From Escherichia coli (GTDB lineage Bacteria; Pseudomonadota; Gammaproteobacteria; Enterobacterales; Enterobacteriaceae): a stretch of 64,000 nucleotides of DNA. The stretch lies in NCBI RefSeq assembly GCF_003334255.1, contig NZ_QOWU01000012.1. One strand, 5' to 3'. Below the pieces are notes generated by a model. It ran no database searches. It was not told the origin of the DNA and saw only the letters and a program-made list of their open reading frames with translations. Shown piece by piece: positions 20,955 to 21,065 of the stretch. Numbering within the stretch: position 1 is the stretch's first letter; every line of letters begins with the position of its first letter. The position numbers and the translations under genes are program-made.

Positions 20955-21065
20955 TCAAGTTGCATCAAGGCGGCAAGTGAGCGAATCCCGATGAGCTTAC
21001 TCAGGTAAGTGATTCGGGGGAGCGAACGCAGCCAAGGCAGAGGCGGCTTGAAGGATGAAGTGTAT
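20955..21065. repeat. ERIC/IRU-like intergenic repeat
   Basis: Core gcgaatcccgatgagcttactcaggtaagtgattcgggggagcg aligns about 35/44 with the ERIC core GTGAATCCCCAGGAGCTTACATAAGTAAGTGACTGGGGTGAGCG. Confidence 0.55.

Follow-up and report, generated by a model that had tools for sequence, protein, structure and literature searches.

A full-length ERIC element in the puuR-puuC spacer of Escherichia coli: boundaries, strain variability and a probably near-neutral role

ERIC elements, also termed IRU or RU-1, have been known since 1990–91 and were reportedly described by Sharples and Lloyd in 1990, by Hulton et al. in 1991 and by Wilson and Sharp in 2006. In E. coli they are 127-bp sequences with terminal inverted repeats, TA ends, a palindromic core and a long-hairpin fold, which lie between genes in transcribed regions and differ in presence or absence from strain to strain. 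The element between puuR and puuC described here is alike in all of these respects and nothing essential is different, the copy representing a CCCGAT/ATTCGGG sub-variant of the family. To our knowledge, an effect of an ERIC on operon mRNA has been measured only in Yersinia.

The ERICs of Yersinia enterocolitica are members of the same family. They are transcribed together with the neighbouring genes, fold into an RNA hairpin and duplicate a TA when they insert (summarised in PMC2229807, PMC3184786 and PMC10969869). The levels of neighbouring mRNAs change measurably with these ERICs, in a manner that differs with their orientation (PMC2229807, PMC10969869), and the measurements are those of De Gregorio et al. 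(2005) as summarised in reviews. According to the same summaries, the Yersinia effect is governed by how the element is oriented and by how near it lies to a stop codon, with ribosomes unmasking an RNase E site in a terminal repeat, and the decay switch of B-oriented copies involves an ERIC situated at the upstream stop codon or directly beside it, whereas the puuR-puuC ERIC lies 45 nt beyond it. REP sequences and BIMEs are, like ERICs, intergenic, palindromic and co-transcribed, and a REP-like unit lies directly upstream of the present element (20906–20935), but REP units measure about 35–40 bp, have another consensus and are without long terminal inverted repeats. The Correia/NEMIS elements of Neisseria also count as miniature inverted-repeat elements; they end in TA, are transcribed with their neighbours and undergo RNase processing, but they are unrelated in sequence and feature promoter and IHF motifs and RNase III cuts, none of which was seen in the puuR-puuC ERIC.

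The stretch of DNA analysed here (the window, 64,000 nt) contains the putrescine-utilisation cluster of E. coli with puuA, puuD, puuR, puuC, puuB and puuE. The features around the puuR-puuC spacer, which measures 274 bp (20895–21168), are as follows.

Up to 19412, minus strand: puuA
20337–20894, plus strand: puuR, the upstream gene (open reading frame list and RefSeq annotation), its stop codon 45 nt before the ERIC
20906–20935, plus strand: REP-like palindrome TGTAAGCCGGGTAAGCGCAATGCGCCCGGC, 12 nt past the puuR stop, flanking the ERIC and not part of it
20940–21066, plus strand: full-length ERIC (IRU/RU-1), a miniature inverted-repeat element of 127 bp
20940–20966, unstranded: left terminal inverted repeat, starting with TA (20940–20941), the left copy of the TA pair
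20981–21024, plus strand: central conserved inverted-repeat core (ERIC1R/ERIC2 primer region)
21040–21066, unstranded: right terminal inverted repeat, ending with TA (21065–21066), the right copy of the TA pair
21067–21168, plus strand: puuC leader of 102 nt, intact after the insertion
21169–22656, plus strand: puuC from its annotated start (MNFHH...), 102 nt after the ERIC (open reading frame list and RefSeq)

The 701 bases around the element (20700–21400) are 100% identical to K-12 and to many other strains, and puuC in NC_000913.3 (1362743–1364230) maps to 21169 in the window. The ERIC at 20940–21066 has no RefSeq annotation at puuR-puuC, and the palindrome at 20906–20935 is likewise without annotation in RefSeq NC_000913.3. 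By the REP consensus, we take this palindrome to be REP-like. It is kept in all Escherichia species and in Pseudocitrobacter, where its version is more canonical in its REP-like character.

The original prediction had proposed an ERIC-like repeat in this spacer at 20955–21065, and formal alignment showed a stronger relationship than that wording implied. The interval 20940–21066 aligned end to end and ungapped with the E. coli ERIC consensus (127 nt), sharing 106 of its 127 positions (83%), which excludes the outcome of no similarity, and it matched Salmonella SeRU-1 at 100 of 127. The consensus used was the E. coli ERIC of Wilson and Sharp (2006), given as its reverse complement by Delihas (2007; PMC2759123, Table 1a), and in the Wilson and Sharp orientation the element reads along the plus strand, which is the transcribed strand of puuDRCBE. 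A blastn search of the whole window with the consensus returned this site at E = 1.9e-34 and other matches no better than E = 0.25, and the global alignment score lay at z = 20.6 in comparison to 2000 shuffles. The figure of about 35 matches over the 44-nt core was reproduced as 35/44 at 20981–21024, the next best site in the 64-kb window on both strands reaching 25/44. The puuR-puuC repeat is a bona fide full-length ERIC and not merely ERIC-like.

The ends of the element were set by its terminal inverted repeats, by alignment of filled against empty sites and by comparison with another ERIC copy, found in a type VI secretion (T6SS) locus, whose match covers exactly 20940–21066. A repeat search identified the terminal repeats as 27-nt arms that are 74% complementary, of the form TATACAC...GTGTATA, and the ERIC feature table in PMC2229807 likewise gives terminal inverted repeats with TA ends. 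The predicted span therefore stood in its greater part and was too short at both ends, 15 nt of the left terminal repeat and 1 nt of the right having been missed. Assignment of the element as a REP was rejected, as its long terminal inverted repeats and its ERIC consensus differ from REP. At gathering thresholds Rfam returned nothing at the ERIC, its single hit in the window being the distant McaS, and at permissive thresholds only RF02818 V_AS5 (Vibrio RNA AS5), a sub-threshold covariance-model match at 20939–21062 (44.8 bits, E = 1.1e-8). Membership in V_AS5 was rejected, since the gathering threshold of that family is 96 bits. The match probably stems from a common ERIC ancestry of that Vibrio transcript, and the Vibrio antisense RNA family would seem to rest on an ERIC-like repeat. 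The match also agrees with published ERIC-like repeats in Vibrio cholerae (PMC2267715).

With the puuR-puuC copy as blastn query, all 5,426 complete E. coli genomes gave matches, at 2–16 places per genome (median 10), and the other copies that were read came from the queA-acpH, rhlB-gppA, yeiL-psuT and ybtP-ybtA spacers and from the T6SS locus. The stem variant CCCGAT/ATTCGGG is common to the puuR-puuC and rhlB-gppA copies, with pairing kept through a C-G to G-C flip. Folding of the plus-strand RNA gave one long imperfect hairpin of -51.7 kcal/mol (z = -6.6), in comparison to -36.3 kcal/mol for the minus strand. Within a 299-nt context the ERIC folds independently of its neighbours, and the REP-like palindrome forms a separate hairpin. 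Across the alignment of ERIC copies, 91.7% of cells at 39 consensus pairs were paired (32–42% in slid controls), 11 pairs had changed on both sides (1–4 in slid controls) and none of 500 shuffles reached the observed pairing or covariation, although constraint on the RNA and selection on the inverted repeat as DNA would be expected to yield such counts alike. Petrillo et al. (PMC2267715) gave 19–21 ERICs in K-12 (21 from the literature, 19 by HMM) and predicted the same hairpin. The puuR-puuC ERIC is an ordinary member of a known family whose K-12 copies are already catalogued. The copy between ybtP and ybtA, in the plasmid yersiniabactin locus of NZ_AP038229.1 (601–686), is truncated and only its left two-thirds could be aligned.

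Presence and absence of the element were surveyed in the same 5,426 complete genomes, of which 4,390 matched the puuR-puuC region and 4,370 held most of it; a site was called filled when the element and its 30-nt flanks were covered to at least 80%. The site varied between strains, with 2,794 of about 4,370 genomes filled (~64%) and approximately 1,576 empty (~36%), O157:H7 being among the empty strains with the filled allele 125 bp longer. An ERIC copy at least 95% identical was present in 2,794 genomes, the same number as were filled, and 2,791 of the 2,794 filled genomes had a copy at least 99% identical. This near-identity fits recent common descent, and may also reflect constraint. For about 1,036 of the complete genomes megablast gave no match at all to the puuR-puuC region (20700–21400), and in roughly a fifth of genomes the puu cluster itself therefore seems to be missing or strongly diverged.

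In the outgroups the site is empty. A species scan with PuuR showed empty sites, with spacers of 149 bp, in E. albertii, E. whittamii, Escherichia sp. E1V33 and the divergent 'E. coli E69' lineage; those of two Pseudocitrobacter species measure 163–164 bp and are empty too. Most Enterobacteriaceae do not have puuC next after puuR, and both the ERIC and the puuC leader are missing there. Because the site is empty in the outgroups, the puuR-puuC ERIC is a derived insertion inside E. coli, and it is strain-variable. On the present account it entered the spacer after E. coli split from the other Escherichia species, adding 125 bp with TA at both ends, and then passed by descent, nearly unchanged, to about 64% of the E. 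coli that bear puu. It lies between the REP-like palindrome and the conserved 102-nt puuC leader, and leaves both intact.

The junctions of the filled allele read AATC-TA[...]TA-TAAAG, with a net gain of 125 bp, while empty sites carry a single dinucleotide that is either TA or CA. The outgroup site reads AATC-CA-TAAAG except in E. whittamii, which is different there, and the TA-empty form AATC-TA-TAAAG was found in at least 314 E. coli genomes as estimated from identity bands, six of which were read; the split between TA-empty and CA-empty gives bounds only, because a SNP in the flank places one of the TA-empty genomes in the lower band. TA is reported to be duplicated on ERIC insertion, which predicts a TA-type empty site (PMC2229807; PMC3184786). 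Flanking SNPs over 842 nt in 15 loci showed a mosaic pattern, in which the empty haplotype nearest to filled K-12 was of the CA type (4/842 differences) and the six TA-empty genomes had 7–19/842 differences from K-12. Since the nearest empty haplotype to K-12 is CA-type, the TA-empty allele is not an obvious precursor; as judged from these sequences, it may be a precursor, a product of precise excision or a parallel C-to-T change. A more detailed account, in which a C-to-T change made the TA target, ERIC insertion followed and the resulting lineages differ in the tightness with which puuCBE expression is coupled to the PuuR-controlled puuD promoter, as against its own sigma-S promoter, seems improbable to us. 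If true, the CA-empty, TA-empty and ERIC-filled alleles would form a ready-made natural experiment on an ERIC in an E. coli operon.

The original prediction had further stated that a 32-codon N-terminal extension of puuC in the open reading frame list was drawn from the repeat. With the element boundaries placed as above, this part did not hold, as the extension lies wholly downstream of the ERIC. The features of the leader that bear on this point are given below.

21071–21127 (inner stem 21090–21104), plus strand: predicted hairpin of 57 nt in the puuC leader
21073–21168, plus strand: spurious 32-codon puuC extension starting where the open reading frame tool placed it, 96 bases, all 3' of the ERIC
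21159–21163, plus strand: Shine-Dalgarno AGGAG, 5 nt upstream of the puuC ATG at 21169

All three lie inside the 102-nt leader. The in-frame stop codon TAA that limits the extension (21067–21069) is flanking DNA, and the extension is also found in strains and species with no ERIC at the site. That it is probably untranslated, as the original prediction also proposed, was supported by the RefSeq start at 21169, by the position of AGGAG, by the change of the upstream ATG at 21073 to ACG in Pseudocitrobacter vendiensis, by variation that does not follow codon positions and by the predicted hairpin.

Conservation of the leader was compared in seven loci (E. albertii, E. whittamii, Escherichia sp. 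E1V33, two Pseudocitrobacter, 'E. coli E69' and an E. coli-like MAG). The last 65 nt (21104–21168) were identical at 64–65 of 65 positions, in comparison to 80–98% at third codon positions of puuR and puuC (80–95% in the six divergent loci), indicating that synonymous sites are far less conserved than the leader. In the leader hairpin, the stem stays paired at four of its five substitutions across species through G-U wobble, on the plus strand only, the same substitutions being mismatches on the minus strand, and loop positions vary freely. The variation in the extension stretch would thus fit an RNA hairpin or a constraint at the DNA level, not coding. The inner stem was also flagged as terminator-like on the minus strand by a consensus scan, at chance level, and the leader gave no Rfam family match. 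Taken at the sequence level, the puuC leader is probably a control region of the sigma-S-dependent puuCBE transcript.

Translation at this locus beyond the annotated puuC could in principle take two forms, use of the 32-codon extension or expression of a minus-strand frame (21001–21183, 60 aa) as the 'ERIC peptide' of Delihas (2007). Both frames exist in the open reading frame list and an open frame is present on the reverse strand of the ERIC consensus (PMC2759123), but no Shine-Dalgarno precedes the ATG at 21073 whereas AGGAG stands before that at 21169, the upstream ATG is lost in P. vendiensis, and conservation is flat over codon positions in a manner that fits the hairpin. In addition, puuC starts at MNFHH in every annotated record that was read for the locus. 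Removal of the ERIC takes 66 nt (22 codons) off the 3' end of the minus-strand frame, which therefore could not be conserved in empty strains. We regard either form of coding as extremely unlikely, and the long puuC frame is better treated as an annotation artefact outside the ERIC.

A search of the leader for a PuuR operator gave 0 matches to the 15-nt box there and 3 in the puuA-puuD spacer, and an operator in the leader was rejected. The box was reportedly defined by Nemoto et al. (2012). This recognition sequence, AAAATATAATGAACA, matches at 19378–19392, 19473–19487 and 19550–19564 in the puuA-puuD divergent region with 0–2 mismatches, and the perfect box overlaps the first codons of annotated puuD as mapped from K-12 coordinates. 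Over the whole window 8 matches were found at up to 3 mismatches, with 2.1 expected. Separately, in one human faecal isolate (NZ_AP027829.1) an IS1 of 768 bp sits 15 nt ahead of the puuC start and has duplicated 9 bp of its target (ATAGACGTG, corresponding to 21146–21154). This IS1 is within the conserved leader and splits the spurious extension.

The element was also considered as a source of transcription signals. In the filled allele, the right ERIC end and the junction GTGTATATAAAG might supply or modify the puuCBE promoter in K-12, as CCATAAAG is there changed to TATATAAAG, a better -10-like string, and Maciag et al. (2011; PMC3141248) report that puuCBE has its own sigma-S-dependent transcription start, mapped in K-12, a filled strain. 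The promoter scan, however, identified no site in the ERIC or at its edge; its sole promoter-like site lay outside the element at 21143–21170, with a count at chance level. Moreover, the right arm is without a suitably spaced -35-like hexamer, the review table of PMC2229807 gives no promoter motif for ERICs, and the 102-nt leader is almost invariant in species free of the ERIC, pointing to a control region there. A junction promoter is accordingly judged very unlikely.

No intrinsic terminator was identified on the plus strand between 20300 and 21400 by a consensus scan. The ERIC is followed by UAAAGAAUGUCG, and its hairpin has no U-tract; with no plus-strand site in the scan either, the ERIC hairpin was rejected as an intrinsic terminator. 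The genes puuDRCBE are treated as one operon in several papers. As no intrinsic terminator was identified between puuR and puuC, transcripts that read through from puuD, whose promoter is under PuuR control, are expected to include the ERIC hairpin of about -52 kcal/mol, on the assumption of co-transcription. At most, the element would then form a structure between cistrons that might impede 3'-exonucleases or give an RNase entry site, as reported for the Yersinia ERICs, and by analogy with these an effect on puu mRNA is plausible.

A stronger proposal is that the ERIC is a working intercistronic RNA regulator that sets the stability of puuDR mRNA against that of puuCBE, by way of RNase E or RNase III entry or of an exonuclease block, so that putrescine catabolism would differ between filled and empty strains. 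The stable, family-conserved hairpin on the transcribed strand agrees with this proposal, as do the likely co-transcription of puuR with puuC and the Y. enterocolitica precedent summarised in PMC2229807 and PMC10969869. The position of the element is less favourable, as it starts 45 nt past the stop codon and behind another hairpin; given this distance and the intervening REP-like hairpin, the ribosome-unmasking mechanism of Yersinia is unlikely here. Further evidence against regulation comes from the approximately 1,576 puu-bearing genomes and all outgroups that do without the ERIC, from the separate promoter of puuCBE (PMC3141248) and from a published 3'-end map, the accessible part of which has no RNA end in puuR or puuC. 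On balance we consider a regulatory role unlikely.

Since the ERIC is missing from all outgroups and from about a third of the strains that bear puu, our best judgement is that it is a near-neutral passenger at puuR-puuC with little or no regulatory effect. The overall account, comprising an ERIC-family copy, a derived insertion in E. coli and a near-neutral passenger, is held with high confidence. The practical yield consists of exact boundaries (20940–21066) for an ERIC unannotated in RefSeq, the recognition of the long puuC frame as an artefact and a filled/empty allele series over thousands of genomes, which is a basis for testing the effect of an ERIC on E. coli operon mRNA; beyond annotation hygiene the result carries little weight.

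Published transcript data were consulted for the same interval. The Cappable-seq and SMRT-Cappable-seq supplementary tables consulted contain no entry for the puuR-puuC coordinates or genes, and a full-text literature search linking ERICs to puuR/puuC or to ycjC/aldH returned no publication. In the portion of the 3'-end atlas (bioRxiv 10.1101/2020.07.18.207399) that was available, ends within these genes were listed only inside puuD. The same portion gives a reproducible end in puuD at K-12 position 1361446 on the plus strand (window ~19872), and a separate table gives a position antisense to puuD at K-12 1361395. Elsewhere in the window, and unrelated to the ERIC, the small RNA McaS/IsrA was identified on the minus strand at 62885–62980 by a full-length Rfam match of 116.6 bits.
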